Assembly: GCA_965218695.1 (NCBI GenBank)
Contig: OZ244651.1
Location: 896,001-960,000 of the forward strand
DNA length: 64,000 bases
Direction of reading: 5' to 3'
DNA from: Nitrosopumilus sp.
GTDB taxonomy: Archaea; Thermoproteota; Nitrososphaeria; Nitrososphaerales; Nitrosopumilaceae
The translations under genes and the position numbers were made by a program. How positions within the stretch are numbered: position 1 is the stretch's first letter; each line of letters opens with the position of its first letter. A model generated the notes under the pieces. That model was not told the DNA's origin. It saw nothing but the letters and a program-made list of their open reading frames with translations, and did not search any database. Positions 37,458-61,957 of the stretch are shown one piece after another.

Positions 37458-38708
37458 TTGGTACAGGGAATAAAAGAAAAAATTGAGAACGCCAATAAAG
37501 AGGCAATAAATAAGATCCTTACATCAAGACCAATCTTAGTTGATGTCAAACCAGCTATAGAAGTAATACCTGAAATGAAAAAAAATATGATTATGCATGC
37601 TGGTCCTCCAATCGACTGGCAAAATATGTGCGGGCCTATGAGGGGAGCTATAATAGGAACTTTGTTATTCGAAGGTCTTGCTAAAACGAAAGATGAAGCT
37701 GTTAAGATTAGCGAAAATGGAGAAATTGAATTCTCACCAAATCACGAGCATCACGCTGTAGGCCCTATGGCTGGAATCACTTCTGCATCCATGCCAGTCT
37801 TCGTTGTGAAAAATGAGCCACACAACAATACAGCTTTTGCACGTGTGGTTGAAGATAAGATAGGATTTGGGGATTATGGAGATGAGGCAGTTGAAAGTTT
37901 GCGCTTTTGGAGAGATAAAGCGTCTGTTGCAATTGGCATCGCAGCCCGCAAAGCTGGGGGGATTGATTTGAAGAGCATTATTGCTAAGGCTTTGTTTAGG
38001 GGAGATGAACTACATAACAGACCTGTTGCTGGAAGCTCCTTGTTTACTAATATCATATTATCATATCTAATCGAGGTTGGCATGGATCATAAGGAACTGC
38101 TTCCAGTTGCAAAGTTTTTGACCGATAATGAAATATTTTTCCTTGGTCTGAGCATGGGTGCTTGTAAAGCAACCATGGATGCCGCGCACGGAATTGATTA
38201 TAGTACATTAGTTACTGTTATGGCAAGGAATGGTGTTGAGTTTGGAATCAAGGTGAGTGGTTTAGGCGATGAATGGTTTACTGGGCCAGCAAATATGATC
38301 GATGGCTTATTCCTCCCGGGATTCACAGCCGATGATGCTAATCCGGACATCGGCGACAGTGCTATTACGGAAACTGCTGGACTGGGAGGCTTCACTTTGG
38401 CAGCTGGACTTGCAATTATTAATTTGGTTGGAGGAACTCCTGATGAGGCAATACGGTATAGCAAGCAAATGCAAGAAATAACTATCGCGAAAAACAATGG
38501 ATACACAATTCCTGCTCTTAACTTTGAGGGAACGGCGACTGGAATTGATATAAGGAAGGTTGTCAAGACTGGAATTCTTCCAATCATTGATACTGCTATT
38601 GCCAGTAAGAACCCAGGGCAGCGTATGATAGGTGCTGGCTTGGTTAAGCCGCCGCTAGAAGCTTTTAAGAAAGCCCTACAGGGGTTTGCAAAAAAATACG
38701 ATATCTAA
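37458..38708 (+). CDS. DUF1116 / YlbE (AllG)-like protein
   Basis: HAGPPIDW..MCGPMRGA, GPMAG, GDELHNR, MARNG, DIGDSAITET.GLGG. Confidence 0.9.
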   Translation: MVQGIKEKIENANKEAINKILTSRPILVDVKPAIEVIPEMKKNMIMHAGPPIDWQNMCGPMRGAIIGTLLFEGLAKTKDEAVKISENGEIEFSPNHEHHAVGPMAGITSASMPVFVVKNEPHNNTAFARVVEDKIGFGDYGDEAVESLRFWRDKASVAIGIAARKAGGIDLKSIIAKALFRGDELHNRPVAGSSLFTNIILSYLIEVGMDHKELLPVAKFLTDNEIFFLGLSMGACKATMDAAHGIDYSTLVTVMARNGVEFGIKVSGLGDEWFTGPANMIDGLFLPGFTADDANPDIGDSAITETAGLGGFTLAAGLAIINLVGGTPDEAIRYSKQMQEITIAKNNGYTIPALNFEGTATGIDIRKVVKTGILPIIDTAIASKNPGQRMIGAGLVKPPLEAFKKALQGFAKKYDI

Positions 38709-38780
38709 TTTATCTATCGCTTTTTTGCACGCGAGTAAGGTACGCCAATAGATGCTGGTTGTAAAGTTCTCTTATAGGTA

Positions 38781-39880
38781 TACTGACGATCAAAAGTTTG
38801 TGCACAATGCTTCATATTTTCGGCTGGTAAATTTGAGAATGTCAAGCTTGAACCTAATGGTTCGATAATACAACGAGACTGCCCGGTGCATGTCCTGAAA
38901 TGTCCGGTAATATTCTGAGACAAGCAGGACGCGCTTTCCCTGGTGCCAGCATTCCTCCATCGCGTTGAGGTACGGCGATCCCTTTGGCAAATAGATCATC
39001 TTGACGTCTCTGTTGCTGCGCAGAAATTCCTTGACACGTTTTGAGCGGTGCTGCGGAGCCCGGTCTGTAGTCACCACCACTTTTCCAAAATGCCTGTGCA
39101 GATCCTTGAGATACCTGACAAACGTGGGCCCGTCAAATTTCTCGTACGTCCGGAAAAACTGCCTGCCGTCCCGGGCAATCGAGCCGTACGCTGCGATCCT
39201 CTTGTGGCTGCCGGTGTATGGTACGCTTATGGGATGGCCCACGGGAGACCAGTATTTGCGACCGACCATCACGTCGTGTATGAAAATTACCTCATCCTCC
39301 ATTACCGTGGTGAATCCCTCATTTTCCAGGCGTGAAACGCGCTTATTGAAGCGGTATTTCCAGTTCTGCACGGCTTTTTTGCCTGCCCTGTTAACGTGGA
39401 TCTTTCGCGGTGCCTTTGGAGACAGGTTGTGCTGGTGCATAATTTTCCTGACGTACGTGATGTGAAGTTTTACGCCCGCGTCCTTGCGTATATTCTCCTG
39501 CAACTCCGAGGGCGTGATCCTACGGCAGGATGCCCTTGCGATTATTCCGTCCATGATGTCTCGTGAAATCTTTCTGGGTCGTCCGCATCGGGGAAGGTCA
39601 CGGAGGCCTTGCAGGCCTCCGTCGTCGAATCGGCGCAACCAGTTACGGACCCAGTTTGGGCTCCGTCCCTGGATGTCGGCAGTCTCCTCCACGGACATGT
39701 TGCGCACGCGAACCATGCGCACCGAGACCATCCGGATTCTGACCTTGTAATCTTTTTCTTTTCTGTACGCCTTTTCGAGTTCTTCCAGTTTGGTGTCGTC
39801 CATGTATCCCTGAAATGGGCCTGATCTAGAAACTTTGCGGTTGGCTAGGGCATTTGTTCAAAGACTTTTGCGCGTCAGTA
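38781..39880 (-). mobile_element. IS630-family element, transposase 38790..39803
   Basis: TIR TACTGACG, TA duplication; EDE..TDRAPQH..PYLNAMEE. Confidence 0.94.
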
Positions 39881-39971
39881 TAGATGCCGTTACTGCAATG
39901 GCCATAATATGGGAAAGCATCAGCATAAGTTGATGCGGTGCTTTAACACCAACAGCTTGGAAACTAAATTG

Positions 39972-41705
39972 GTAAGTGTTCACGTGGTTTAACTCATTTT
40001 TAGGCGTATTTTGCAATCTCCGCCAAGTAATCCAATTTCTTGTTTTTCCATGTCATTACACATGAAAAGAAATTCGCCATCCACGTCATCGTCTCCTCTG
40101 CCCTTATGCTGCCCCGTATTTTTCTGTGCACGACTATCTCGCGCAACCCGCGTTCTGCAGCATTGTTTGTAGGCGGGATGTAAGTGTTCACGTGGTTTAA
40201 CTCATTTTTAGGCGTATTTTGCAATCTCCGCCAAGTAATCCAATTTCTTGTTTTTCCATGTCATTACACATGAAAAGAAATTCGCCATCCACGTCATCGT
40301 CTCCTCTGCCCTTATGCTGCCCCGTATTTTTCTGTGCACGACTATCTCGCGCAACCCGCGTTCTGCAGCATTGTTTGTAGGCGGGATCTTTGGGTTCAGC
40401 ACGAACCGGAACAGGTCGCTGCCAGCATTGCTGATCTTGACCATGAATTTTTCCAATATTGGATCGTCGGCGTACCTTGCAACGATCTTTTCGATGCATG
40501 ACGTCAGCATGGCAGACGCGTTGTCCCGGAGAGAGCGCGAGCGTTTCCTGCTTGCCCTTCTGGCATAATCATAGATTATGCGCAGGTGCTTCAGGACGTT
40601 GCGCGCGCCTGGGCAGTCCGGATTGCGGTTGCAGATGTCCCTGGCCTCGCGTATTATGTGCGACCAGCAGCGCTGGACGCGGTATTTTCCGTACGCCGTC
40701 CAGCCGTCGCACACTAACGTGCCGTCCCAACCCCCAAGCGCTTCTTTCAGAACCTTTGCCCCCCGGCTGTCCCGTATCACGTACAGCGCGTGCCCGGTCA
40801 GCGGATCGTGCAGTATCCACACCCAGACGTTGCGGCCGTTTAGGTGAATCGATGTCTCGTCGGCGTGCAGTATCTTGGCCTTGCGTATCATGGCGGCAAT
40901 GGCTGCCGCAGGGGCGCCCAGCGACGTTCCCAGCCTGCGCATTATGTTGTGCGCCGTGCCCGAGGAGAGTGTAATTCCGTACCGCGACATGCGGTCTGCG
41001 ATCATCCTAAACGGCATGCGACACACGTAATCGTCTGCAACATCAGTCGTTATGCTCGGATCGTAGCTGCCCTTGTCTGGAAGGCCGGTCTCGGGCTTGA
41101 TGTCCACCAGACCGCAGGAGCAGCGACACGTGTTTATGGTGTGGCGCGTGGTGATGACCTTTATCGTGCGCTCCACCTTGGTAATGTCGCGTTTTTCTGA
41201 CTGCACTATGGAAAGGCTACCCGAGCCGCATTCGGGGCAGGCCTCCGGGGTGTGTTCCTCAAACTCGGTGGGTTTTGGCTTGCGGGTGCGGCCCATGTAG
41301 CCTTTTTGCCCCCCGCGCGACTTCCCGCTGCCGGCCGCATCCACGCGGTCCTTTTGATCCCGGGAGGCTTTTGTGGATTTATTGTAGGCATTCTTTTCGT
41401 CGCCTTTTCCCTTTGTGTCAGGCCATCCGGGCCCCCTTTTTTGTGATGACGGGGTGTTGTAATTGTCATGCCGCACCAGCCTGCGCTTAAGATCAGCAAC
41501 TGCCAGATTCAATTCCTCAATTATCTGCCCTTGCATCTCAATCGTCTGCTTGAGCTTGATGTTCTCAGTCTTGAGATCCGTGTACATCTTTTTGAGTTCA
41601 GCCTGGCTTTTCACATCGGGTTTGGATTACCATCCTATTTGGATCTGTGGTTTGCACAAAATTTACCCAAGAGTGAACTGAATTAGGCACGACGTGAACA
41701 CTTAC
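39972..41705 (-). mobile_element. IS66 copy C (40180..41705) preceded by a 208-bp duplicated right end (39972..40179)
   Basis: One TSD, CTAAATTG, flanks the whole structure (39964-71, 41706-13). Confidence 0.94.
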
Positions 41706-41727
41706 CTAAATTGTAAAGCATCCACCA

Positions 41728-41818
41728 GTACATACTCAGGTCCCGGTATTGTCTAGGCGTAAACATGTACTGTTTTACGTATATTCACGCCTGAGTTTAA
41801 GGGGAACCTGAGTATGTA
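41728..41818. mobile_element. ~92-bp MITE (last base displaced to 45712 by an IS630 insertion)
   Basis: GTACATACTCAGG...CCTGAGTATGTA|C; 8-bp TSD ATCCACCA at 41720-27 and 45713-20. Confidence 0.8.
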
Positions 41819-41873
41819 TACCAAAAGTGAAAAGTTGATGCGATTGTCACATATTTTACCACATCTAAAGTTA

Positions 41874-43399
41874 GTAAGTGTTCACGTGGTTTAACTCATT
41901 TTTAGGCGTATTTTGCAATCTCCGCCAAGTAATCCAATTTCTTGTTTTTCCATGTCATTACACATGAAAAGAAATTCGCCATCCACGTCATCGTCTCCTC
42001 TGCCCTTATGCTGCCCCGTATTTTTCTGTGCACGACTATCTCGCGCAACCCGCGTTCTGCAGCATTGTTTGTAGGCGGGATCTTTGGGTTCAGCACGAAC
42101 CGGAACAGGTCGCTGCCAGCATTGCTGATCTTGACCATGAATTTTTCCAATATTGGATCGTCGGCGTACCTTGCAACGATCTTTTCGATGCATGACGTCA
42201 GCATGGCAGACGCGTTGTCCCGGAGAGAGCGCGAGCGTTTCCTGCTTGCCCTTCTGGCATAATCATAGATTATGCGCAGGTGCTTCAGGACGTTGCGCGC
42301 GCCTGGGCAGTCCGGATTGCGGTTGCAGATGTCCCTGGCCTCGCGTATTATGTGCGACCAGCAGCGCTGGACGCGGTATTTTCCGTACGCCGTCCAGCCG
42401 TCGCACACTAACGTGCCGTCCCAACCCCCAAGCGCTTCTTTCAGAACCTTTGCCCCCCGGCTGTCCCGTATCACGTACAGCGCGTGCCCGGTCAGCGGAT
42501 CGTGCAGTATCCACACCCAGACGTTGCGGCCGTTTAGGTGAATCGATGTCTCGTCGGCGTGCAGTATCTTGGCCTTGCGTATCATGGCGGCAATGGCTGC
42601 CGCAGGGGCGCCCAGCGACGTTCCCAGCCTGCGCATTATGTTGTGCGCCGTGCCCGAGGAGAGTGTAATTCCGTACCGCGACATGCGGTCTGCGATCATC
42701 CTAAACGGCATGCGACACACGTAATCGTCTGCAACATCAGTCGTTATGCTCGGATCGTAGCTGCCCTTGTCTGGAAGGCCGGTCTCGGGCTTGATGTCCA
42801 CCAGACCGCAGGAGCAGCGACACGTGTTTATGGTGTGGCGCGTGGTGATGACCTTTATCGTGCGCTCCACCCTGGTAATGTCGCGTTTTTCTGACTGCAC
42901 TATGGAAAGGCTACCCGAGCCGCATTCGGGGCAGGCCTCCGGGGTGTGTTCCTCAAACTCGGTGGGTTTTGGCTTGCGGGTGCGGCCCATGTGGCCTTTT
43001 TGCCCCCCGCGCGACTTCCCGCTGCCGGCCGCATCCACGCGGTCCTTTTGATCCCGGGAGGCTTTTGTGGATTTATTGTAGGCATTCTTTTCGTCGCCTT
43101 TTCCCTTTGTGTCAGGCCATCCGGGCCCCCTTTTTTGTGATGACGGGGTGTTGTAATTGTCATGCCGCACCAGCCTGCGCTTAAGATCAGCAACTGCCAG
43201 ATTCAATTCCTCAATTATCTGCCCTTGCATCTCAATCGTCTGCTTGAGCTTGATGTTCTCAGTCTTGAGATCCGTGTACATCTTTTTGAGTTCAGCCTGG
43301 CTTTTCACATTGGGTTTGGATTACCATCCTATTTGGATCTGTGGTTTGCACAAAATTTACCCAAGAGTGAACTGAATTAGGCACGACGTGAACACTTAC
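41874..43399 (-). mobile_element. IS66 1526-bp element, copy D
   Basis: TSD TAAAGTTA. Confidence 0.96.
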
Positions 43400-43602
43400 T
43401 AAAGTTATACCAATTTCACGTCCCACAGTCAATGAAGATCAAGACGATGTTGAAAAGATACGCCGCTGAGACAGACTGCGATACCAAGGACCGCATGATG
43501 CTGATCATCAGAGTCAAACGTGATGGAATAACCATGAGGGATTCTGCAAAATCCCTGGGAAAGTCAGCCTCGTGGGGCTACAAGTGGCACGAGCGCTACC
43601 TA

Positions 43603-44704
43603 TAGTGAAAAGCGAAAATTCGTTCCAAGTTCAGCACCTCGGACCGGAAACTATGTAGATCAGATTGTCGCCTAACGCGGCATGAGCAAAGTAACACGGG
43701 AAGAACTCGAAGCAGCATACAAAAAAGAAAAAAACCTCAAGGTGGGAGTCAGAATGCTTGCAGTACACATGGTATATTTTCGCAAAGTGAGCATAGATGA
43801 TGCAGCCGTCAGCCTTCTGCGATGCCCGCGATGGGTGCGCAACTGGCTGGAACGCTTCGAGAACGGAGGCCTGCAAGGCCTCCGGGACCTTCCCAGATCC
43901 GGCAGGCCGCCCAAGATTTCGCCGGAAGCGATAGACGGCATACTGGACAAGGTAGACCGGCTCAAGACCACTCCTGCCGAACTGCAGCAGGTCATACACA
44001 GGGAGACGGGAACAAAGATGCACAGGACGAATGTCAGGAAAATCATGCAAAAATACGGCCTGTCTCCCAAGGGGTCGCAAAAAATCCACATCAACAGGGC
44101 CACCAAAACGGCCGTAAAAAGTTGGCAATATCGCCTCAAAAAGAGAATTTCACGCCTAGAAAAGGACAGTTTTGTCCTGGTCGTGCAAGACGAGGCGTTC
44201 TTCATACACGACGTAAAATCTGGCCGCAAGTATTGGTCGCCTGTGGGGGTGCCAATAACCGTGCCATACACGGGAAGCCACAAAAGAATTACCGTGTACG
44301 GTTCAGTCACGACGGACGGCAGGCAGTTCTTCAGGACTGCCAGCGGGTTCAACGCGCCCACTTTTGTTGCATATCTCAAGGCCATGCAGAGACATTTTGG
44401 GAAGGTGGCCGTCATGGTGGACAGGGCATCCCCGCACCGCGCAAAAGCCGTCCGGACGCTGCTGCGCGAGAACAGGAACATCAGGATCATATACCTGCCA
44501 AAAGGCTCGCCGTATCTCAACGCCGTGGAAGAATGCTGGCACCAGGGAAAACGGAACCTGCTTGTCTCAGAATACTACAAAACCTTCGTGGACATGCACA
44601 GAGCCGTCTCCCAGTATTATCGAACTGCGAGATTCAATCTGGACTTGATCAAATACTTTAACAGAAAAGCCGAATTATTTTGCAGGAACTTTTGATCGCC
44701 ACTA
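43603..44704 (+). mobile_element. IS630 1102-bp element, copy 1 (transposase 43682..44695)
   Basis: TAGTG..CACTA ends, TA duplication; near-identical to the 57040 and 62044 copies. Confidence 0.95.
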
Positions 44705-45811
44705 TAGAAGTCGGATTTGACAGGCTGGGAAACATGCCGCGCTCCGGCAGGCCGACCAAGGCGAGCAAGGCAGACATGAAGAAGATCAGAAAGGCCGCAT
44801 GCAGTAAACCGGTCTGGACGGGCAGGGAGATGCAGCAATACATCCAACAGAAGACCGGAGTAAAGTACGAACTCGGATATGTGCGCCAGATACTGCGCGG
44901 GTGGGGCTATTCCCAAAAGGTTCCCGTAGGAAAACATGCAAGAAGGGCACCTGACGAGGAGATCAGGAAATTCCAAAAAGAGATGCCAGAGATTATAAAA
45001 AAAGAACAGTGAAGGAACAGTCGTAGCGATACAGGACGAGTCCATAGTAATCTCCGATGCGCGGCCGCGAAGACGCGGCTACACCAGGAAGGGAATACGG
45101 GCGTTTTTCACGTACACCGGCTCACACTCCAAGACGATAATCCATGGACTAATCACCACGGACGGCAGGGGCATGTTCCGGCAGTACGATGCGTTTACCA
45201 AGGACACCTTTGAGGACTTTCTAAGGCAGGCGATGTACAGGTTCAAGAAGATCTGCCTGATCATGGACAAGGCCTCCCAGCACAGGGCATCAAACATACG
45301 CAAACTGCTTGATGGCACAGACGGCCTGGAGATAATCTTCCTGCCAACTGCGACCCCGGACCTGAGCGCCATAGAGACGTACTGGAGGGATCTCAAACGG
45401 GCAGTGCTTGACGTGCCGTACACCAGCCTGAGCATGCTCCGCGAGGCGATCACCAGGTACGCGAGGTACAAAAAACCGAATCTGGTAGTCGAGAATTTTC
45501 TGTACAGGGCCATCTAGAACGACATCAAACCGCACCGGATCCACGCCGCCTAGCGTGTGCCATGCACGGCGCACCAGAGCATGCAATGTCTAATGTTTGG
45601 AGCGTCTTTTCTCGTCATTTGGGAATTCAACGCACCTCGTAATTTCCAGAGACGGCTGTTGCATCAAAAATTTATGAGCGATTTTGATATGAATTTTTCA
45701 TTGCTGGTATACATCCACCACTCCGAATAATACATATGTGCCAAAAATCTGATCTGCCCATAAAACAAATTAACAAATTGATCAGATTTATGAAAAATTT
45801 GGTGATAATGG

Positions 45812-47383
45812 TTAATTAGTGATATTTTTGTTAGGGATTCTCCTTCTAACTGCCATTACAAAAACAGCTGGCGCAGCAAAGTACATTCCAATGTTTAGCA
45901 ATATTACGCTAATGCCATAGCCGAGCATCTCAGATTCAGAGTTAATGTCAGCATATTGTAGCAATGTCAATGAAGTCAGTAGTGGGGTCAATGCTAGTTT
46001 CACAGTTTCCTTGAAGACTGGGTTTTCCCTTTCGTAATCAGCTATTGCTGGACTGAAGGAATAATAGAACTGGTTGAATCCTGTCATGAATGCAGAGCCA
46101 GACTCTGTTTGTAAAATAGTATTGTCACGAATTTCTCTTAAGATCTGGACTTGAGGGGCCATTTCAGAACCAAACGCTGCCGTAGCTATTAGGCATCCGC
46201 CGCCTGAAGCTTCTGGTTCTTCTTCTTCCATAGCTGCATCTTTCTCCTCCATCATCGTCTCGCTTTCTTCCATCATTTCTTCTTCCATCATCGTCTCGCT
46301 TTCTTCCATCATTTCTTCTTCCATCATTTCTTCTTCAGCTGCCACAAGGTACTCCTTGTATCCATCTTGTGCATAAATTTCTGGAACAACAAATGTTCCT
46401 TCTATCATCTGATTCTCGAGTTCAGCTATCTTTGCCTTTAATGCTGAAGGAATCTGACTCTCTAATTCATGGTATGATGCTAGACCTGACACTCCTTCAC
46501 TTATGCCCCATCGATAGAATTCACCGCCCTTTATTTCTCCTGAATTAATCCCTTCAATTCCTCGCACAATGATACTTGTATGGTTAAAAAGTGCACTTGT
46601 TAGAGTGATCTCTTCATCCAAAAAGATCTGGTCGTTGGTATTACCAATATGTAGTAGACCTGGATTTTCATTTAGGCCATTTATGACCCCAAAAGCTGCT
46701 CTATCTAGATCCTGAAACAGTATGTCTGCTCCAGCATCAATCTGACCTTTAGCAGCCTCGTAGCCTTTTGATACATCGTTAAAGCTACCGATGTAAACCT
46801 GCATTATTTCGACTTGAGGATTCTCCGTATGCACTCCAAGCTTGAACGCCTCATACATGCGTACTAGATTTGGAAAATCGTGGGCAGCTACAATTCCTAT
46901 TTTGTTTGTCTGTGTCATTCCAGTAGCTAATACTCCGGCAAGGTAGCCTGACTGCTCGTTCTTTGCGTCTAGACCAACCATGTTTGATGGATATGGTGCA
47001 TCAATGGGAGGAACAGCTGCTGTAACTAAGAAAGTCGTTTGTGGATAGTCGGCCGCTATTTTTGCAGTAACATCAGTGAATTGAGGGCCACCCATTATCA
47101 CATACTTGTAGCCCCGCTCTGCATAATCTCTAGCTGCAGTTTCCCACTGGGGCGGATCCTGTTTTTCACTTATAGCTATTTCGTAGCCGAACTTATCTTC
47201 TAAAGCTAACATGCCAGCATAGTGTAATGCCCCCCATCCTAGGTCATCAGTTGATGCCTCCATAACAAGAGCTGTCTTTGTAACTTGTGCATGTGCTGGT
47301 GAAAAACTAATGCCGATAACTGCCGTTAAAATTATAATCGAAAAGAGTCCCAGTACAATACCGCTACATTTTTTTCGGATCAA
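45812..47383 (-). CDS. BMP/PnrA-family nucleoside-binding ABC substrate protein with acidic Met/Glu linker and CFI-box-CTERM domain
   Basis: Signal peptide (PAHA-Q); DLGW, EQSGYLAG..A..TQTNKIG, GSFNDVSKG, GADILF; C-terminal GGGCLIATAAFGSEMAPQVQ.LRE.RD..FYYSFSP plus TM. Confidence 0.9.
   Translation of the reverse strand: MIRKKCSGIVLGLFSIIILTAVIGISFSPAHAQVTKTALVMEASTDDLGWGALHYAGMLALEDKFGYEIAISEKQDPPQWETAARDYAERGYKYVIMGGPQFTDVTAKIAADYPQTTFLVTAAVPPIDAPYPSNMVGLDAKNEQSGYLAGVLATGMTQTNKIGIVAAHDFPNLVRMYEAFKLGVHTENPQVEIMQVYIGSFNDVSKGYEAAKGQIDAGADILFQDLDRAAFGVINGLNENPGLLHIGNTNDQIFLDEEITLTSALFNHTSIIVRGIEGINSGEIKGGEFYRWGISEGVSGLASYHELESQIPSALKAKIAELENQMIEGTFVVPEIYAQDGYKEYLVAAEEEMMEEEMMEESETMMEEEMMEESETMMEEKDAAMEEEEPEASGGGCLIATAAFGSEMAPQVQILREIRDNTILQTESGSAFMTGFNQFYYSFSPAIADYERENPVFKETVKLALTPLLTSLTLLQYADINSESEMLGYGISVILLNIGMYFAAPAVFVMAVRRRIPNKNITN
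46248..46336 (-). repeat. 36-bp tandem repeat encoding EEEMMEESETMM linker
   Basis: Direct inspection. Confidence 0.85.
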
Positions 47384-47433
47384 GTGAATATCTATAGAGA
47401 GAGTAGGTTTGATATAAGTATGATCTTCAATAT

Positions 47434-48906: not shown

Positions 48907-48912
48907 CAATAT

Positions 48913-49899: not shown

Positions 49900-50987
49900 T
49901 AGTGTCGATCAAAAGTTTTTTACATTTAGGGACTTTCTACAGATAAACTCCATTACGTCAATCCTTGGACGCGCGGTCCTGAAATACTCCGACATTGCGT
50001 TGCGCATCTGCACTATCGTGGCATAGTACTCGGACACCAGCACGTTACGTTTTGCCTGGTGCCAGTACTCCTCCACGCCGCTAAGCTCGGGCGTTGCAGC
50101 TGGAAGCCACATGACCTTGATGTCGGGATTTTCCTTTAGAAATTTCATCACGATCCTTGACTTGTGTTGTGGCGCATTATCCATGATTACGACCACCTTT
50201 CCAAAATGCCTGACCAGATCCTTGAGATACTGCAGGACCGTCTCCTTATCAAATTTTTCATGCGTCCTGAAGAACTGCCTGCCGTCTGTTACAATGAAAC
50301 CGTATGCCACCACCTTTCCGTGCCGTCCCTTGTATGTCGTGACAATCGGCTCGCCTTCTGGCGACCAATACTTTACGCCCGATGCCGGATCGTCTACAAA
50401 TATGGCCTCGTCAAAGACGACTGGGAGAAAACCCTTCTCTTGCAGGCGTGAAATCCGCCTTTTGGCGTTGCGCTGCCACTGCCTGATCTTTTTGATCTCT
50501 GGCCTGTTGACGTGGATGCGCTGGACCGTCTTGGCAGACAGGCCAAGCCTGTGCATTATCTTTGTGACGTTTGAAATGTGGTATGTCACCTTGAATTCTT
50601 TGCGTATGTTTTCTTTGAGCTGCTTTGGAGTTGTGATGCTGCCAGTCCTTGCTGCAAGCCCCGCAATCTTCTCAAGCCCGACCTTGGGCGGCCTGCCCGG
50701 GCGGGGCCTGTCTTCCAGGCCTGCAAGACCCTCGCTATCAAAATGCCGGACCCAGCTTGTGACAGTGTGCGGGTCGCAAAAGCACAGTGATGCCACCTCG
50801 GATATGCCCAGCCCCCTGATCTTGACCATGCAGACGGCGTGGATCCTGTCCTTTATGGTTCCCCTCTTCTCTTTCTTGTAGGCCTGGATTAACAGCTTTT
50901 TGCTTTTTTCATCCATGTGGGCGGTAGTGCGGAGTGATCAAAAAATGTTACGCTCAGACTGACGTAGAAGACTTTTGATTGACACTA
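49900..50987 (-). mobile_element. IS630 1088-bp element, copy 1 (transposase 49909..50916)
   Basis: TIR TAGTGTC(G/A)ATCAAAAGT, TA duplication. Confidence 0.95.
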
Positions 50988-51080
50988 TATGTAAACAAAA
51001 AAATTGAATTAATCCACACGAGCATATGATCTTAGCTATAGGTGGATAGGCGGGGGTTAACATGTGTTCAGCCCGGCTGA

Positions 51081-51171: not shown

Positions 51172-51251
51172 CCGGCTGACACGAGTATTCTTAAATAGTT
51201 TTAACTGATTTTTTGTATATGTTACATCTTACCAGAAACTCAAATAATTTC

Positions 51252-52823
51252 ATGGTAAAGATGAAGGGAATTACAAAGACATTCGATAGTTTGATAGCTA
51301 ATGATCATATTGATTTTGATGTAAGAGGTGGTGAAATCCACACTTTGTTGGGCGAAAACGGAGCCGGAAAGACCACACTTATGAAAATATTATACGGTTT
51401 GCTAAGTCCAGACTCTGGTGAGATTTTCGTTGAAGGAGAAAAAGTCCGATTCCGGTCTCCGCGAGATGCAATACAACTCGGTGTGGGGATGGTCCATCAG
51501 CACTTCATGCTCGTTTCACGACACACTGTATTAGATAACATCATTCTAGGCATTTCTGGTCTTCCTGCAAAAACTGCAGAAACTAAGAATGTGAATGTTC
51601 TACAAAAACTCATAAATAGAATTAGTCTGCACTCTGCCGAACATGCTGAGCTAATCTCGGAGATTTCTGACAAGTATAACCTAAAAATAAATCTCGCAGC
51701 AAAGATATGGCAGCTCTCTGTCGGCGAGCGCCAACGCGTAGAGATAATTAAGGTTCTTTACCGCGGCGCAAAGCTCTTGATACTTGATGAACCAACTTCG
51801 AATCTTACACCGCTGGAAAACGAGAACTTGTTTTCGGCGTTAAAAACATTGGTAAAGAGCGGTGTTTCAGTAGTCTTGATAACACACCGGCTTAATGAAG
51901 CGATGACTATGAGTGATAGGATTACTGTGCTAAGGAGTGGCAAACATGTTGCCACCCTTGACAGAGACCAGTTATCTAAAGCCAAGCTAGCTCAGATGAT
52001 CGTGGGAAAGGAGATTGCGTATGCAGAAGCTTCACACCAACCGACAGGCACTAAGCCAATTTGTAGGATGGAAAATATTTGGGCCAAGAACAATCTTGGC
52101 ATTGACGCAGTAAAAGGATTCTCCCTTGCTGTGAACGAAGCAGAGATCGTGGGCATTGCGGGTGTAGAAGGTAATGGCCAGGGAGAACTTGTTGAAGTAA
52201 TTATGGGACTTCGTAAAGCAGAACGAGGTCATGTATTTATCAAAGGAGATGAAATAACTCGCAAAAGCACGGGTGAAATACTGGGCAAGGGAGTATCTTA
52301 CATACCTCAGGATAGAAATACCGAGGGTCTGGTAGGTGTGTTTAATATCTGGGAAAACATGATCCTTGATCGGTATAATGAACCGTCCTTTTCTAACAGG
52401 TTTTTCATAGATGCAAAAAAAGCCAAAGAGCATGCACGTTCACTCATAGACGAATATGCCATCAAATGTCATGGACTGAACACTAAGGTCAAAACACTTT
52501 CAGGTGGCAATGCTCAACGAGTTGTTGTTGCGCGAGAACTAGACAGAAGTCCTAGTCTTGTTGTGGCAAACCAACCCACTCGTGGTCTTGATGTTGCCTC
52601 CACGGAATTTGTACTTAACAAGCTGGCTGATCATCGAAAGCAAGGATGCGCAATACTTGTCGTATTAACAGAGTTGGATGAAATAATCAGGATAAGTGAC
52701 AGAATAGTCGTAATGTATCAGGGAATAGTTCAGGGAATAGTTCGTCCCACAGAGACCGATAGAGAACAAATTGGATTGCTCATGTTAGGAGGAAAGAAAA
52801 AAAATAGTGACAAAATTGAGTGA
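51252..52823 (+). CDS. Nucleoside/sugar (CUT2, NupA-like) ABC transporter ATPase, two NBDs
   Basis: GENGAGKT, LSVGERQR, LDEPT, LSGGNAQR, QPTRGLD; CTTAAATA TATA-like at 51190. Confidence 0.95.
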   Translation: MVKMKGITKTFDSLIANDHIDFDVRGGEIHTLLGENGAGKTTLMKILYGLLSPDSGEIFVEGEKVRFRSPRDAIQLGVGMVHQHFMLVSRHTVLDNIILGISGLPAKTAETKNVNVLQKLINRISLHSAEHAELISEISDKYNLKINLAAKIWQLSVGERQRVEIIKVLYRGAKLLILDEPTSNLTPLENENLFSALKTLVKSGVSVVLITHRLNEAMTMSDRITVLRSGKHVATLDRDQLSKAKLAQMIVGKEIAYAEASHQPTGTKPICRMENIWAKNNLGIDAVKGFSLAVNEAEIVGIAGVEGNGQGELVEVIMGLRKAERGHVFIKGDEITRKSTGEILGKGVSYIPQDRNTEGLVGVFNIWENMILDRYNEPSFSNRFFIDAKKAKEHARSLIDEYAIKCHGLNTKVKTLSGGNAQRVVVARELDRSPSLVVANQPTRGLDVASTEFVLNKLADHRKQGCAILVVLTELDEIIRISDRIVVMYQGIVQGIVRPTETDREQIGLLMLGGKKKNSDKIE

Positions 52824-55462: not shown

Positions 55463-56851
55463 TTGGTTGGCATCAATAGACAGAAAAAGCCTAAATCGAT
55501 CTTGATAAAAAACGCGTACATAATAACTGTAGATAAAATAGATAGAATAATTAAAAACGGATCCATTTTCGTTGAAAATGATCGAATCATCGATATAGGA
55601 AAGAGCGACGATTTGTTACAAAAATACAAAGCTGAAAAGATAATAGATGCCAGACAAAATCTTGTCATACCGGGCCTTATCAACACCCATTCTCACATGG
55701 TTTTTTACCTAACCCGCGGTCTTGGCATGGATAAACATACAATTGATTGGCTTAGGGCAGCTATTTGGCCTTTCATGCAAGAGCTTTCTGAAGATGATGC
55801 CCATATTGGTGCACTATTAGGATTTGCTGAAAATTTGAAGACTGGAACCACATTTGTTATTGACAATGAAACAGCTGTACGAAAAGATAGAAAGGGAATT
55901 TTTGACAGAGTCGCGCAGGCTGCTCAGGAGTCTGGGATTAAGGCGATACTACTAAGAGGGTATCAGGATGAGCCATCTAAAATACCCGAAATGTTTGTGG
56001 AGAGTCTGGATGAAATAAATCATGAATATGAAAGAATTATAGGAAAATGGCACAATAAAGGTGATGGTAGACTAAAGACTTGGATTCATCCCGGGAACCT
56101 GCTATACTGTAGCCCCGAATCTTTTTGCAAATTCAATGAATTAGCTAAAAAACATGATATTGGAATTCATACTCATGTTGCTGAAGATCGTGAAGGAACA
56201 AACCGTATTAAGGAAAGATACGGCAAGGGGTACATCGAGGTTTTTCGTGATATTGGCGTACTTGGACCCAAATTTCAAATGGCTCACACCATCTTTGTTT
56301 CAGAAAAAGAAATACAGATGATCGCTCAGGCACAGGCCCGAGTTATGTATACGCCAACAGCAGATATGCTACTTGCAGCGGGAGCACCACCCATTCATAA
56401 GATGCGTGACGCTGGAGTCGTTGTAGGACTTGGTACAGACTCGCCTAATAATAGTCAAGACATGATACAATGTATGAAGTTTGGAGCTCTACTTCTAAAG
56501 TCCACGACGGAGAATTCCACAATAATGCCTGCTCAAGAAATCTTGAGACTAGCCACAATAGAAGGCGCCAAGTCCATGGGATTAGAAAACGAAATCGGAT
56601 CACTTGAGGTTGGAAAGAAGGCCGATATTGTGATTGTTGACGTACATAAGATTCATACTACTCCACTACACGACCCCGTCTCCACGTTGGTTTATTCCTC
56701 TAGTGGTACTGATGTAGATACTGTCATCGTTGATGGTGAGGTTCTGGTTGAAGGAGGAAAACTAGTTCATATTAATGAAAGTGAAATTATGGAAGCGGCT
56801 CAAGAAGCGGCAGATGGAGTTGTGAAACGTAGCAAGACGCAGCTTAACTGA
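55463..56851 (+). CDS. Metal-dependent amidohydrolase, MTA/SAH-deaminase / SsnA / TRZ-ATZ-like
   Basis: PGLINTHSH, HTHVAE, MAHT, GLGTDS, GSLEVGKKAD. Confidence 0.88.
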   Translation: MVGINRQKKPKSILIKNAYIITVDKIDRIIKNGSIFVENDRIIDIGKSDDLLQKYKAEKIIDARQNLVIPGLINTHSHMVFYLTRGLGMDKHTIDWLRAAIWPFMQELSEDDAHIGALLGFAENLKTGTTFVIDNETAVRKDRKGIFDRVAQAAQESGIKAILLRGYQDEPSKIPEMFVESLDEINHEYERIIGKWHNKGDGRLKTWIHPGNLLYCSPESFCKFNELAKKHDIGIHTHVAEDREGTNRIKERYGKGYIEVFRDIGVLGPKFQMAHTIFVSEKEIQMIAQAQARVMYTPTADMLLAAGAPPIHKMRDAGVVVGLGTDSPNNSQDMIQCMKFGALLLKSTTENSTIMPAQEILRLATIEGAKSMGLENEIGSLEVGKKADIVIVDVHKIHTTPLHDPVSTLVYSSSGTDVDTVIVDGEVLVEGGKLVHINESEIMEAAQEAADGVVKRSKTQLN

Positions 56852-56859
56852 AAGCGAAA

Positions 56860-58470
56860 AAAGGTTGCAAACTTGTGATAAAAAACGATTCACTGCCAAC
56901 TTTGGTTTTGAAAATAAACAGTTTGATGATTCCATCATAACAGGAACAGCATTGCACATGTATTATTCAGGAATGTCAGTAAGGATATTCCCAACCATTA
57001 TGAGATGATGGAGACTGCCACATCATTCAAAACCAGCTATAGTGAAAAGCGAAAATTCGTTCCAAGTTCAGCACCTCTGACCGGAAACTATGTAGATCAG
57101 ATTGTCGCCTAACGCGGCATGAGCAAAGTAACACGGGAAGAACTCGAAGCAGCATACAAAAAAGAAAAAAACCTCAAGGTGGGAGTCAGAATGCTTGCAG
57201 TACACATGGTATATTTTCGCAAAGTGAGCATAGATGATGCAGCCGTCAGCCTTCTGCGATGCCCGCGATGGGTGCGCAACTGGCTGGAACGCTTCGAGAA
57301 CGGAGGCCTGCAAGGCCTCCGGGACCTTCCCAGATCCGGCAGGCCGCCCAAGATTTCGCCGGAAGCGATAGACGGCATACTGGACAAGGTAGACCGGCTC
57401 AAGACCACTCCTGCCGAACTGCGGCAGGTCATACACAGGGAGACGGGAACAAAGATGCACAGGACGAATGTCAGGAAAATCATGCAAAAATACGGCCTGT
57501 CTCCCAAGGGGTCGCAAAAAATCCACATCAACAGGGCCACCAAAACGGCCGTAAAAAGTTGGCAATATCGCCTCAAAAAGAGAATTTCACGCCTAGAAAA
57601 GGACAGTTTTGTCCTGGTCGTGCAAGACGAGGCGTTCTTCATACACGACGTAAAATCTGGCCGCAAGTATTGGTCGCCTGTGGGGGTGCCAATAACCGTG
57701 CCATACACGGGAAGCCACAAAAGAATTACCGTGTACGGTTCAGTCACGACGGACGGCAGGCAGTTCTTCAGGACTGCCAGCGGGTTCAACGCGCCCACTT
57801 TTGTTGCATATCTCAAGGCCATGCAGAGACATTTTGGGAAGGTGGCCGTCATGGTGGACAGGGCATCCCCGCACCGCGCAAAAGCCGTCCGGACGCTGCT
57901 GCGCGAGAACAGGAACATCAGGATCATATACCTGCCAAAAGGCTCGCCGTATCTCAACGCCGTGGAAGAATGCTGGCACCAGGGAAAACGGAACCTGCTT
58001 GTCTCAGAATACTACAAAACCTTCGTGGACATGCACAGAGCCGTCTCCCAGTATTATCGAACTGCGAGATTCAATCTGGACTTGATCAAATACTTTAACA
58101 GAAAAGCCGAATTATTTTGCAGGAACTTTTGATCGCCACTATATAACGGAGTTTCAAATGATTACAATCTGACTGCAAAATATCTCAATGGGCTCGTACC
58201 AAGAGTTGGTGACTGTTTCAGGGTAGACTAGTATAGATTAAAGTCGCAGGAAAGCAGAATTACCCGTTTGCAAGTATGGATGATGATACCAGATATTTGC
58301 TGACCAGCGACATGGCAGCTACAAAGTTCCGGCACAATGCAGACAGCCTGTCATCCATGACCAAAAAGCAGGCTGGCAAATCTCCAAGGAATTTCATAAC
58401 CGACGGACTTCCAGCCTGCATAAAGTCAGGCAGGAAGGTATTTGGAAAAAAGATAAACCGCGTCAGGCAT
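56860..58470 (+). pseudogene. Degraded IS6-like transposase, interrupted by IS630
   Basis: KRFTANFGF..MYYSGMS; MDDDTRYLL, FITDGLPA; internal stops. Confidence 0.6.
57040..58141 (+). mobile_element. IS630 1102-bp element, copy 2
   Basis: Near-identical to the 43603 copy; TA duplication. Confidence 0.95.
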
Positions 58471-60170
58471 AGTTGGGGCCAAAGCAATCCGCTCACCCTA
58501 GCCTAAAATGGCCTCACAATTCTGCTGTCCATCAGGCTTGGTGCGGTTAGAGGCCCAGGTTTGTGCAAAAACCTGGCCGCCGGTGAATAGGGACACATCA
58601 TTCCGGGTGCAGAAGCGGATTCTTCGCACACGAATGCGGTTAGTTTACCATAGCCCGTGAGCCGGTTGTCCATCTTTTCAAGAATGCCCGTTATTACAGT
58701 CTTTAGCTCCTCTATGGACTTGAAGTACCTACCAGCCAGCCGTTTCTTGAGATCCCGCCACACGTTCTCGATTTGGTTCAGCTGCGGTGTGTACGGCGGA
58801 AGGAATTCCCGCTCGATAGCTCCGCCTGCACCCTCCACGTATAGTGTCAATCAAAAGTCTTCTACGTCAGTCTGAGCGTAACATTTTTTGATCACTCCGC
58901 ACTACCGCCCACATGGATGAAAAAAGCAAAAAGCTGTTAATCCAGGCCTACAAGAAAGAGAAGAGGGGAACCATAAAGGACAGGATCCACGCCGTCTGCA
59001 TGGTCAAGATCAGGGGGCTGGGCGTATCCGAGGTGGCATCACTGTGCTTTTGCGACCCGCACACTGTCACAAGCTGGGTCCGGCATTTTGATAGCGAGGG
59101 TCTTGCAGGCCTGGAAGACAGGCCCCGCCCGGGCAGGCCGCCCAAGGTCGGGCTTGAGAAGATTGCGGGGCTTGCAGCAAGGACTGGCAGCATCACAACT
59201 CCAAAGCAGCTCAAAGAAAACATACGCAAAGAATTCAAGGTGACATACCACATTTCAAACGTCACAAAGATAATGCACAGGCTTGGCCTGTCTGCCAAGA
59301 CGGTCCAGCGCATCCACGTCAACAGGCCAGAGATCAAAAAGATCAGGCAGTGGCAGCGCAACGCCAAAAGGCGGATTTCACGCCTGCAAGAGAAGGGTTT
59401 TCTCCCAGTCGTCTTTGACGAGGCCATATTTGTAGACGATCCGGCATCGGGCGTAAAGTATTGGTCGCCAGAAGGCGAGCCGATTGTCACGACATACAAG
59501 GGACGGCACGGAAAGGTGGTGGCATACGGTTCCATTGTAACAGACGGCAGGCAGTTCTTCAGGACGCATGAAAAATTTGATAAGGAGACGGTCCTGCAGT
59601 ATCTCAAGGATCTGGTCAGGCATTTTGGAAAGGTGGTCGTAATCATGGATAATGCGCCACAACACAAGTCAAGGATCGTGATGAAATTTCTAAAGGAAAA
59701 TCCCGACATCAAGGTCATGTGGCTTCCAGCTGCAACGCCCGAGCTTAGCGGCGTGGAGGAGTACTGGCACCAGGCAAAACGTAACGTGCTGGTGTCCGAG
59801 TACTATGCCACGATAGTGCAGATGCGCAACGCGATGTCGGAGTATTTCAGGACCGCGCGTCCAAGGATTGACGTAATGGAGTTCATCTGTAGAAAGTCCC
59901 TAAATGTAAAAAACTTTTGATCGACACTATACTCGTTGATCGTGTGGGAATGGTGGTGTGATGCGTTGTCCAGAACCATGCAGGACTTTGGATGGCTCCC
60001 CCGGACGTACTCCATGAACCCCTTGAATGTCTCAGAGTTTGCGGATTCCGCTATGCGCACGTAGATCACGTCCATCCCCATTACGCCGAACAGCTTGACG
60101 GATTTTTTTGAGAAGCCGGTTCGGACCGTGTCGCGGCCTCCGGCGAGTACATCTGCGAGACTGGGATCAA
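58470..60170 (-). pseudogene. Degraded IS630 remnant hosting the 1088-bp element
   Basis: VLDNASHH (3' of insert) and LPPYTPQLNQIE (5' of insert) on the minus strand. Confidence 0.7.
58842..59929 (+). mobile_element. IS630 1088-bp element, copy 2 (transposase 58913..59920)
   Basis: Near-identical to the 49900 copy, inverted. Confidence 0.95.
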
Positions 60171-60206
60171 ATGACAGTATATATAGAGAATTGGTTTAAT
60201 ATTAAT

Positions 60207-61805
60207 ATGATCCTCAATATTGTTAAAAAGAATTTTTTTAGGGATTCAGTTCAAATGATGCAATTTTCTCAGCGATTAAGAGATGAGCAGGGAGTTGTTG
60301 ATGCAGCTATCGTGATGGCAACAGAATTCAACAAAAATACTCTCAAGAACATGGATCTATTAACGGAAGATGGCATTGCTGCTACCGAAAATGATACATT
60401 AATTTCAATTAATTGTGAAGACGAAAATTCGTTGAACGATACTATCCAAAAGGCAGAACAATTACTTGTATCAACTTCTGTGAAGACAAAAAATGAATTC
60501 ACTAGTCTGACATCTGCATTGGATTCCTTTAGCAATGCAAACATTGCATCATTATCAATTCCCGGTCAATTTGTTAAAGAAATGGCTGCAGAGTTGTTAG
60601 AAAAAAAACTCCATCTATTTGTTTTCAGTGATCATGTATCATTAGATGATGAAATCTACTTGAAAAATCTTGCGCTTGAAAACAATGTATTATTCATGGG
60701 GCCTGAAGCTGGGACATCCATACTTGATGGAAATGTGTTTGGATTTGGAAATAGGGTAAGAAAAGGTTCTGTCGGAATTATTGGAGCGTCAGGCACTGGA
60801 ATTCAAGAGTCCGCCACTCTACTAGATTTGTTTGGTGAGGGCATATCTCATGCAATAGGGGTTGGTGGAAGAGACTTACAGAAAGATGTGGGTGGGATGA
60901 TGACAATGAAGGCCATGGAAATTTTTGAAGATGATCCAAACACTAAAGCTGTTCTACTCGTTTCAAAACCAGTCGATGATGGTGTTAGAAATAATATCAT
61001 AAACAAAATCAACAATTTTTCAAAGAAAAATTATGTTTTTTGTTTCATTAGTGATAAAGAAAACCGTGAAGATTCTGCCAAAATAAAATTTTCCAAATCA
61101 ATTCAAACATCTGTGCTAAAAATTCTGCAGTCTCTAAATAGTAACGTTTACAAAAAAACTAAGAATGTTGTTAAGAACCAAGTTAACGATTCAATTAAAC
61201 TGGCTGAATCACTTTCCAAAGATTTAAACGAGGAGCAAAAATTTGTCAGGGGATTTTTTGCTGGGGGTACCCTTTGTTACGAATCCAAAACACTTTTGGA
61301 ACAAATTGTGGGAAAAGTATACTCTAATCTTAGCTCAGATGATGCATATTCCATTACGGGAGATGCACCCAGTAAAGAAAATACTTTAATTGATTTTGGT
61401 GAAGAGCAATTTACTTCTGCAAGACCACACCCTATCATCGATCCTTTATTGAGAAAGAACCGAATTCTTGAAGAAGCCAATGACCCAAACGTAAGCGTGA
61501 TAATTATTGATATAATATGTGGAATTAACGCTGCAAAAAATACCATGGCATTTCATGCTGAAACCATAAAAAAAGCTATTCAGATTGCTAAGGAAAAAGG
61601 CAGAAGACTGCCTGTTTTTACATACATTTGTGGAACAGAAAAGGATGTAAGTGAAAATGAGCTCCAGATGTTAAGAGATTCTGGAGCCAGAATTTTTACA
61701 TCCAATGCCTTGATGAGTTTTGCGGCTGCGCTTGTTGTTAAGAATTTAGATGAAAATTTGATGAAAAAAATTCGGTGTGAATTTTTGGAGGCAGAATTAT
61801 TTTGA
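60207..61805 (+). CDS. fdrA: FdrA (AllF)-like acyl-CoA-synthetase-fold protein
   Basis: FRDSVQMM, MGPEAGT, GASGTGIQE, IGVGGRDL, SKP, AGGTLCYE, DFGEEQFT..RPHPIIDP. Confidence 0.9.
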   Translation: MILNIVKKNFFRDSVQMMQFSQRLRDEQGVVDAAIVMATEFNKNTLKNMDLLTEDGIAATENDTLISINCEDENSLNDTIQKAEQLLVSTSVKTKNEFTSLTSALDSFSNANIASLSIPGQFVKEMAAELLEKKLHLFVFSDHVSLDDEIYLKNLALENNVLFMGPEAGTSILDGNVFGFGNRVRKGSVGIIGASGTGIQESATLLDLFGEGISHAIGVGGRDLQKDVGGMMTMKAMEIFEDDPNTKAVLLVSKPVDDGVRNNIINKINNFSKKNYVFCFISDKENREDSAKIKFSKSIQTSVLKILQSLNSNVYKKTKNVVKNQVNDSIKLAESLSKDLNEEQKFVRGFFAGGTLCYESKTLLEQIVGKVYSNLSSDDAYSITGDAPSKENTLIDFGEEQFTSARPHPIIDPLLRKNRILEEANDPNVSVIIIDIICGINAAKNTMAFHAETIKKAIQIAKEKGRRLPVFTYICGTEKDVSENELQMLRDSGARIFTSNALMSFAAALVVKNLDENLMKKIRCEFLEAELF

Positions 61806-61957
61806 TACCGGGCAATCTTCGAGTAATAAATATCGGCTTAAAGCTTTTTTATCAATCCCTAACGGAACAAAAGATTGAAGCCGTTCACGTCATCTGGGAA
61901 CCAAAACCAAAACTTGAAAAAGAGATTGAAGATATACTTGATAGAATGGACGTGTGA
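61802..61957 (+). CDS. Stand-alone FdrA C-terminal-domain peptide (51 aa; not in the ORF track)
   Basis: TTGA overlap with the fdrA stop; MIPGNLRVINIGLKLFYQSLTEQKIEAVHVIWEPKPKLEKEIEDILDRMDV matches the VINIGL..F...VHV.W.P tail of FdrA. Confidence 0.75.
   Translation: MIPGNLRVINIGLKLFYQSLTEQKIEAVHVIWEPKPKLEKEIEDILDRMDV

Follow-up and report, generated by a model that had tools for sequence, protein, structure and literature searches.

In the available text of the reports cited here, purified AllFGH of Escherichia coli is an oxamate carbamoyltransferase (PMC11326118), a bacterial pathway for biuret and triuret is built from TrtA, TrtB, BiuH and AtzF (PMC7948467), and clusters of allFGHK, biuH and bmpA-nupABC genes were predicted in ammonia-oxidizing archaea (AOA) and comammox in October 2025 (PMC12625717). 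In the last of these reports, three genomes of Nitrosopumilaceae are listed with biuH, both biuH and allFGHK are attributed to the cultured Nitrososphaera viennensis, and laboratory tests of the predicted clusters are called for; as far as its available text goes, no atzD occurs in the nitrifier metagenome-assembled genomes that were examined. Our literature search found no paper that tests growth of AOA on biuret or assays the enzymes. Here we analyse a gene island in a 64,000-nucleotide stretch of a Nitrosopumilus sp. genome (GenBank assembly GCA_965218695.1, contig OZ244651.1, positions 896,001 to 960,000; C1:896001-960000 of the host genome, hereafter ‘the window’). The island is a further case of the kind of gene set already predicted in print for AOA. 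A sequence-only reading of the window, made before this analysis, knew of no such route in the lineage; that statement is out of date, as AOA clusters have already been described (PMC12625717).

The island is horizontally acquired, and its genes have remained intact under a heavy load of insertion sequences (ISs). On balance, we favour reading it as a catabolic cassette for biuret-class ureides (biuret, triuret, allophanate and oxalurate) that would end in carbamoyl phosphate and ATP. In this pathway, a surface-anchored Bmp-type binding protein and an ABC importer would take up one or more ureides, a deaminase-type amidohydrolase would strip an exocyclic or terminal amino group from an upstream compound (or serve a second imported compound) and BiuH would convert biuret to allophanate and ammonia. 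A protein with the C-terminal domain of allophanate hydrolase (AH_C) could decarboxylate an N-carboxy intermediate, either carboxybiuret before BiuH, or allophanate or N-carboxycarbamate after it. A four-part enzyme composed of AllF, its tail protein, AllG and AllH would then use phosphate to convert the remaining N-carbamoyl compound to carbamoyl phosphate, from which carbamate kinase would yield ATP, NH3 and CO2, and the released ammonia would feed ammonia oxidation and assimilation. We infer every substrate, the direction of flux and continued expression across the IS breaks.

A recently acquired island with an empty site in the closest relative

The host genome, which is 2.63 Mb and 99.99% complete, encodes archaeal amoA, consistent with the probable ammonia oxidizer that the sequence-only reading had supposed. 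The island extends from window position 37319 to window-equivalent position 70148 (L005:10148; L005 coordinates plus 60000 give window coordinates), about 6.1 kb past the end of the window. It had been thought to end at 61957, but it runs on with genes for carbamate kinase, AllH, AH_C and BiuH. Self-comparison and whole-genome comparison divide its 32,830 bp into 15,047 bp of unique low-GC cargo and 17,783 bp of multi-copy elements. The cargo comprises twelve genes in seven blocks, with host-type ISs between the blocks.

Composition sets the cargo apart from its surroundings, as its visibly higher AT content had already indicated. The cargo genes have a GC content of 34–44% and a GC content at third codon positions (GC3) of 25–41%, versus 54–57% and 63–72%, respectively, for the flanking purL, purQ, aspS, gatA and gatB; the flanks together span a GC3 of 59–72%. 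The IS transposase genes are host-like (GC3 of 64–74%). On this basis, the cargo is of foreign origin and was later invaded by ISs already resident in the host.

The closest relative (G348) belongs to the same genus and has a genome of about 2.2 Mb that contains amoA, with a GC content of 53% over the 34-kb region compared. At the corresponding site it has, in order, acs, gatB, gatA, aspS, sbt, purS, purQ and purL and none of the island genes, and AllG has no match anywhere in its genome. Proteins encoded by the flanks are 84–96% identical over the aligned stretches. DNA homology between the two genomes ends at 37318 and resumes at window-equivalent 70149, such that about 810 bp of the sbt-like gene of the relative is swapped here for 32,830 bp. 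Of 25 same-genus genomes, 23 have the sbt-like gene at full length (open frames of approximately 360–410 amino acids), and the open reading frame (ORF) at the edge of the island matches through residues 52–161 alone. Between BiuH and the point at which homology resumes lies a 495-bp stretch of host-like GC content (L005:9662-10156), a low-copy repeat found at up to three other sites in the genome. We found no tRNA genes, no repeats at the two island boundaries and no integrase domain among the ORFs scanned with Pfam, and an Rfam search of the window and L005 returned zero matches.

Other members of the host family likewise lack these genes. AllG is absent from two sets of other same-family genomes (0 of 120 and 0 of 73), and no AllF homologue occurs in 400 same-family genomes, 98 of which are from the same genus. 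Among 100 same-family genomes, a set that takes in G093, G077 and G092 in the amidohydrolase count, there is no orthologue of the island amidohydrolase; 96 hold just a distant 398-amino-acid paralogue (at most 34% identity over partial length), the host copy of which is at C1:2168758. BiuH has no orthologue among 100 same-family genomes, three of which gave weak isochorismatase matches. The empty site in G348, taken together with a host family that is otherwise without these genes, marks the locus clearly as a recent horizontal acquisition.

The ends of the island can be compared with a contig labelled as a Marine Group I thaumarchaeote (L036), on which BiuH and AllG are adjacent and divergent; here, AllG begins at the left end of the island and BiuH begins at the right end. 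Joining the two ends would recreate the L036 arrangement, which could reflect integration by way of a circular form that was cut in the spacer between the two genes, or a later IS-mediated rearrangement.

Intact genes among recent insertion sequences

Among the multi-copy elements, an IS66-type element is present as 31 full copies genome-wide; the others are three IS630-type variants, an IS4/IS5-type element and fragments. Two more full IS66-type copies, with identical 468-amino-acid transposase ORFs, lie upstream of the island at 8520-9926 and 14164-15570. No other 50-kb bin of the chromosome is as dense in ISs as the one that holds the island, with 8 full copies versus a mean of 1.0. The island could be a passenger, in which recent AT-rich DNA offers a safe landing pad for ISs, no longer encodes a working pathway and retains intact genes merely because the insertions are recent. 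This account, to which we assign a low probability, draws on the 99.5–100% identity of the IS copies to each other, which points to recent insertion, as well as on the splitting of the cargo into seven blocks, probably rearranged relative to those of relatives, and on the truncation of the flanking sbt-like gene. It fits less well with the condition of the genes themselves. All twelve are full length and align end to end with homologues or profiles, which extends to the whole cargo the intact frames reported from the window, and all six internal IS clusters fall within the 16% of the cargo that is non-coding rather than the 84% that is coding. A naive estimate of the chance of this placement is 1.7e-5, which is only indicative given IS target preference and survivorship. 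The earlier statement that ISs lie only between these genes therefore stands, and it would fit the purifying selection that was read from it. The non-coding cargo stretches also contain no cargo-type pseudogene fragment in tblastx searches against the loci of relatives, a small reference set. Finally, of the contigs from four runs compared with 45700-57030, all of them short, those of two runs from other studies (X5 and X7) span parts of the binding-protein and transporter genes at roughly 87–90% identity, which also argues against a passenger; those of run X1, perhaps the source sample, match exactly. Joints across the IS region had sides of fewer than 60 letters or fell in multi-copy repeats and were left out of account. 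Genes that stay intact despite IS bombardment are what selection for function would produce.

A carbamoyltransferase core with a detached FdrA tail

Pfam and NCBIfam searches placed the AllG, Bmp-family, ABC transporter, amidohydrolase and FdrA genes where the sequence-only reading had located them (Table 1). AllH (YlbF) and carbamate kinase are absent from the window, as that reading reported; yet both are encoded within 6 kb beyond its end. The carbamate kinase scores 343.7 bits on TIGR00746, for which the curated cut-off is 358.25, and covers positions 1–308 of the 309 in the profile.

AllF probably starts at Met34 (position 60207), because many homologues are 532 amino acids long (81–93% identity) and the match to NF004760 begins at residue 34. 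Downstream of AllF is a 51-amino-acid protein, suggested earlier to be an FdrA tail peptide. It is indeed real: it matches the end of the FdrA profile and recurs after AllF in 14 loci of relatives (12 archaeal and 2 from Chloroflexota; best tblastn E 6e-17). In 13 of these 14 loci the tail lies behind a stop codon or in a different frame from AllF, and in the remaining locus (L031) tblastn coordinates place it in a frame other than that of AllF. The C terminus of E. coli-type FdrA is thus a separate small protein in these lineages. In one locus (L055) the tail occurs immediately upstream of an AllG paralogue, with no AllF alongside.

The AllG of the window is 86% identical to that of L036 and about 62% identical to those of family f15. 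In the AllG tree, the window protein, the L036 protein and metagenome proteins form a well-supported clade that is sister (99/98) to a clade from family f15. The latter includes a protein labelled by NCBI as Nitrososphaera viennensis YlbE, which is letter-identical to the AllG of L021. AllF has dozens of metagenome homologues at 81–93% identity, one of which carries a Tara label, and was not found in the 1.1 Mb genome of L036.

In three loci of family f15 (L021:7985-9895 on the plus strand, and also L022 and L023), the carbamate kinase of the cluster is a single 636-amino-acid ORF with a Bmp-type domain inserted mid-protein. The order is kinase N-terminal part, Bmp C-terminal half, Bmp N-terminal half and kinase C-terminal part, so that the insert looks circularly permuted. 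This fusion may be a ligand-sensing kinase.

Importer and amidohydrolase

The full layout of a Bmp/NupABC-type system is present: a Bmp binding protein, an ATPase with two ABC domains and two BPD_transp_2 permeases. The nearest NCBIfam model of the ATPase is a ‘putative B6 ABC transporter ATP-binding protein’, at 456 bits versus a cut-off of 670. The binding protein consists of an N-terminal hydrophobic segment, the Bmp domain, an acidic linker and a CFI-box-CTERM, a layout from which we predict that it is surface-anchored. The Glu/Met-rich linker (46205-46314) varies in length among samples, and contigs of runs X5 and X7 omit 56–108 bases of it.

The sequence-only reading proposed that the substrate may be a purine, a nucleoside or a related N-heterocycle. 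On that account, nucleosides or purine bases would enter through the island importer and be deaminated by the amidohydrolase, and AllFGH and carbamate kinase would complete an allantoin/oxalurate-type purine breakdown. Its broader idea, a route from an imported organic nitrogen compound to NH3 and CO2, remains sensible, with AllF, AllG, AllH and carbamate kinase all present; the choice of substrate fares worse, and we consider a purine pathway unlikely to a marked degree. The Bmp/PnrA family does include nucleoside binders, and the closest solved match of the binding protein is AtzT (6pi5, E 7e-21), which binds guanine (KD ~110 nM) and 2-hydroxyatrazine (PMC6834077). However, in a hand-read pairwise alignment of low identity, none of the four hydrogen-bonding side chains of AtzT is kept (Ser97 to Gly, Glu165 to Asn, Asn218 to Asp and Asn220 to Asp), and just the two stacking aromatics are conservatively retained (Tyr45 to Trp and Trp194 to Phe). 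This pattern of contacts would fit a planar, nitrogen-rich ligand other than guanine.

The amidohydrolase is similarly equivocal. Adenosine-type and guanine-type deaminases are among its nearest NCBIfam and PDB matches, as expected for a purine pathway, but it reaches no curated equivalog cut-off: the best NCBIfam score is 373.6 bits versus 522 (5'-deoxyadenosine deaminase) and the next is 365 versus 609. Against solved structures it matches MTA/SAH deaminase (4e-58) and AtzA (9e-56), and it is about equally far from both of these and from the uncharacterized 3hpa. Its metal-binding and catalytic motifs (HxH, HxxE, His and Asp) line up with their counterparts in MTA/SAH deaminase 4f0r and AtzA 4v1x. 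In Tm0936-type nucleoside deaminases a Glu binds the hydroxyls of the ribose; its counterpart in the island enzyme is presumably a Met. Homologues at 90–95% identity occur in metagenomes, and one at 65% is labelled Nitrososphaeraceae.

The genome around the island also bears on the choice of substrate. Although E. coli AllFGH works on purine-derived oxalurate, the host genome has no MoCoBD_1 match (xanthine dehydrogenase), no Ldh_2 match (ureidoglycolate dehydrogenase) and no allantoinase above the cut-off (best model match of 229 bits versus 358). Oxalurate is therefore not makeable from purines in the host cell. The accessory genes adjacent to the carbamoyltransferase core, BiuH and AH_C, instead belong to the biuret pathway.

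Biuret hydrolase and its neighbour

The BiuH-like protein of the island, to which the biuret reading assigns the first hydrolytic step, is closest among solved structures to the BiuH enzymes of Rhizobium (2e-70) and Herbaspirillum (2e-66), followed by the triuret hydrolase TrtA (9e-42) and RutB (2e-22), and its catalytic triad of Asp, Lys and Cys is aligned. It is 82% identical to the copy on L036 and 62–71% identical to the remaining BiuH matches in our sample of the order, nearly all of which are from family f15. Solved-structure matches of the AH_C protein include 5c5z (E 2e-21) and, at E 7e-7, the C-terminal domain of allophanate hydrolase 4gyr. TrtB may be a member of the AH_C family.

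Some of these data would also suit a pathway that ends in urea, in which BiuH makes allophanate, AH_C converts this to urea and urease finishes, leaving AllFGH, carbamate kinase and the importer as a module of their own for another carbamoyl compound, oxalurate for instance. The genome encodes a urease alpha subunit elsewhere, and the AH_C and BiuH genes overlap by 23 bases and are therefore probably co-translated. AH_C domains act on N-carboxy compounds in allophanate hydrolase, which also counts in favour of this ending. The rarity of AH_C, which we found in 2 of 300 other genomes of the order, argues in the opposite direction, as most BiuH-bearing archaea manage without it. We therefore give a urea ending little weight, a judgement to which the distribution of BiuH relative to AllG also contributes.

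Gene linkage in relatives

Three other families of the order contributed 15 AllG loci to a comparison of gene neighbours. AllG is adjoined by AllF in 14, by the ABC ATPase (at least 39% identity) in 13, by AllH in 10 and by carbamate kinase in 10; the misses fall partly at contig ends, and AllH is weakly conserved. These genes thus do co-occur elsewhere, a point on which the sequence-only reading depended, and AllF and the importer ATPase are their most constant members.

In a 301-genome sample of the order, AllG occurs in 36 genomes and BiuH in 19. AllG is present in 12 of the 19 BiuH-positive genomes versus 24 of the 282 that are BiuH-negative, an association that is descriptive only, as related genomes are not independent. 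BiuH adjoins AllG on L036 and the transporter in L025, and lies a few kilobases from the cluster in G248, G236 and G316. This enrichment of BiuH in AllG-positive genomes, often within a few kilobases of the AllG cluster, is not what a urea-ending pathway with a separate carbamoyltransferase module would predict. Family f10 suits such a separation better: AllG occurs in 22 of its 74 genomes and BiuH in 1 of 74, and the sampled AllG loci carry AllF and the importer.

AllG-family genes are tied repeatedly to enzymes of the cyanurate/biuret branch. In L055, an AllG paralogue follows a 93%-identical homologue of the island amidohydrolase, and on the facing side are a second AllG paralogue and an AtzD/TrzD-family ring-opening amidohydrolase (E 6e-150). 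In L057, the amidohydrolase homologue is likewise followed by an AllG paralogue. In an amoA-bearing genome, G318:C89 (1016-8554) encodes an NCS1 permease, an AllG paralogue, a ParB-N/HTH_ParB protein, an AtzD-family enzyme, a carbamate kinase and an FAH-family protein. G318:C89 and L055:390-5731 represent a second type of cluster, with an AtzD-family enzyme and an AllG paralogue and no AllF or AllH nearby.

Weighing the biuret-class reading

Several results weigh against a dedicated cassette for biuret-class ureides. The importer, AllF, AllG and AllH, frequently joined by carbamate kinase, form a core module that also exists in the absence of BiuH, and the counts in family f10 mean that this module has no need of biuret. 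AtzD-family cyanuric acid hydrolase has no match in the host genome by tblastn with a real AtzD-family query; a Pfam search, whose control matched nowhere, also gave none. There is therefore no opening of a triazine or barbiturate ring, and a role for the amidohydrolase upstream of BiuH remains conjecture. Amidase-family genes of the host genome are limited to gatA, which adjoins gatB; there is no allophanate hydrolase and no ‘gatA-like’ amidase. The textbook biuret pathway therefore lacks a step, and what becomes of allophanate is a guess. In the AllF and ABC ATPase trees, the window copies are on long branches that could not be placed with respect to the sampled archaeal clusters, and AllF, carbamate kinase and AllH have a GC content of 34–36% versus 40–44% in the remaining cargo. 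On the strength of these branches and of the lower GC content of the three genes, the cargo may be of mosaic origin and not a single unit that evolved together. IS clusters also part every transcription unit from its neighbours, and regulation, even expression, may be broken by them.

The missing allophanate hydrolase leads to a bolder and rather doubtful version of the biuret-class reading. AllF, the tail, AllG, AllH and carbamate kinase might form the terminal ATP-conserving step of a biuret/cyanurate-type ureide breakdown and split allophanate, or a close N-carbamoyl relative, instead of acting as an oxalurate enzyme, both here and at the many other archaeal and bacterial loci that show this gene linkage. 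Allophanate is carbamoyl-carbamate, just as oxalurate is carbamoyl-oxamate, and is therefore a chemically plausible substrate of the complex. Because the genome encodes neither allophanate hydrolase nor allantoin enzymes, no obvious candidate other than the AllFGH-type complex is left to act on the BiuH product, and phosphorolysis of allophanate to carbamoyl phosphate and carbamate would explain why allophanate hydrolase is dispensable. If this is true, one biuret would yield three NH3, two CO2 and one ATP by substrate-level phosphorylation, and a chemolithoautotroph would gain an energy substrate, a carbon source and some ATP from one organic nitrogen compound. The recent arrival of the island in a family that is otherwise without it would then show the trait spreading among archaeal nitrifiers by gene transfer. 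The question of whether archaeal nitrifiers can use organic nitrogen beyond urea and cyanate bears on models of nitrification in soils, sediments, oceans and animal hosts.

Features of the island

The features of the island and its edges are collected in Table 1. Two ORFs on the minus strand at 44617-45513 were considered as cargo and rejected, as they are antisense frames over a decayed IS630-type remnant.

Table 1. Features of the island and its left flank. Coordinates are window positions unless prefixed with L005; a dot marks features listed with no single strand.
Feature	Position	Strand	Evidence and remarks
Truncated Sbt_1-type (bicarbonate-transporter-like) gene, left flank	36839..37390	+	Pfam Sbt_1 positions 3-113 of 308
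AllG (YlbE/DUF1116), carbamoyltransferase subunit, cargo block A	37458..38708	+	PF06545 E 3e-77; GC3 35%
IS block 1	38779..45717	.	Pfam DDE_3, DDE_Tnp_IS66; repeat map; genome copy numbers
IS block 1, IS630-type copy			
IS block 1, 208-bp partial copy and two tandem IS66-type copies	40180-41710, 41874-43403 (tandem copies)		
IS block 1, second IS630-type copy	43600-44706		
IS block 1, decayed IS630 remnant	44680-45517	+	
Bmp-family substrate-binding protein	45812..47383	-	PF02608 E 9e-43; CFI-box-CTERM NF041770 E 6e-22
IS block 2: DDE_Tnp_1 (IS4/IS5-type) element, IS630-type fragment, IS630-type copy B (49898-50992)	47433..50993	.	
ABC importer ATPase, two fused ABC domains	51213..52823	+	PF00005, two stretches
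Two ABC importer permeases, overlapping/coupled frames	52807-53859, 53847-54782	+	PF02653 E 1e-38, 8e-37
Deaminase-type amidohydrolase, TRZ/ATZ / MtaD subgroup	55463..56851	+	PF01979 E 4e-57
IS block 3: IS630-type copy A (57037-58143), 321 unique bases, DDE_3 fragment, IS630-type copy B (58837-59931)	57030..59938	.	
AllF (FdrA-like)	60207..61805 (listed ORF from 60108)	+	NF004760 E 4e-109; PF02629 CoA_binding, PF00549 Ligase_CoA
FdrA tail protein, 51 amino acids, coupled gene	61802..61957	+	FdrA profile positions 510-554 of 555, E 2.6e-4
IS block 4: truncated IS630-type copy A and IS66-type copy crossing the window end	62031..64000	.	
Carbamate kinase	L005:4745-5743	+	TIGR00746 343.7 bits
AllH (YlbF/DUF2877)	L005:5727-6602	-	PF11392 E 1e-16; 1.7 kb beyond the window end
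IS66-type copy	L005:6616-8168		
AH_C protein, 132 amino acids, allophanate-hydrolase C-terminal domain alone	L005:8154-8552	-	PF21986 E 1e-32
BiuH-like hydrolase, isochorismatase family, 294 amino acids	L005:8530-9414	-	

Comparison with known systems

The uptake system of the island shares a fold family with AtzT/PnrA-type systems and has the same architecture of a double-ABC ATPase and two BPD_transp_2 permeases; relative to AtzT as described in the available text (PMC6834077), the ligand contacts are changed, and the island protein is predicted to be anchored in the archaeal way, through CFI-box-CTERM. Like E. coli AllFGH with its catabolic carbamate kinase AllK, the island clusters the FdrA-like, DUF1116 and DUF2877 families with carbamate kinase. 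It differs from the E. coli system in that the C-terminal tail of FdrA is a separate 51-amino-acid gene, the host genome is without upstream genes of the allB, allC, allD and allE types, and the set is linked to a Bmp-type ABC importer, BiuH, AH_C and a deaminase-type amidohydrolase.

With the bacterial biuret/triuret pathway, as far as the available text of its description goes (PMC7948467), the island shares a BiuH orthologue with an aligned triad, and its AH_C protein could fill a decarboxylase role like that of TrtB or the C-terminal domain of AtzF. Unlike that pathway, the island has no TrtA-like second hydrolase that we could find, and the genome has no AtzF and no AtzD; the end of the pathway is presumably taken instead by AllFGH and carbamate kinase, or by urease.

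The closest parallels are the clusters predicted in AOA and comammox, which in the available text of that report (PMC12625717) involve the same gene families and the same idea of products of ureide and purine breakdown as an ammonia source for nitrifiers. In contrast to those clusters, the island lies in a host family that is otherwise without the cluster and has no ‘gatA-like’ amidase beside biuH. It also has a stand-alone AH_C protein and a TRZ/ATZ-type amidohydrolase, neither of which is mentioned in the searched text of the paper, and, compared with the clusters described there, it is fragmented by ISs and compositionally foreign to its genome.

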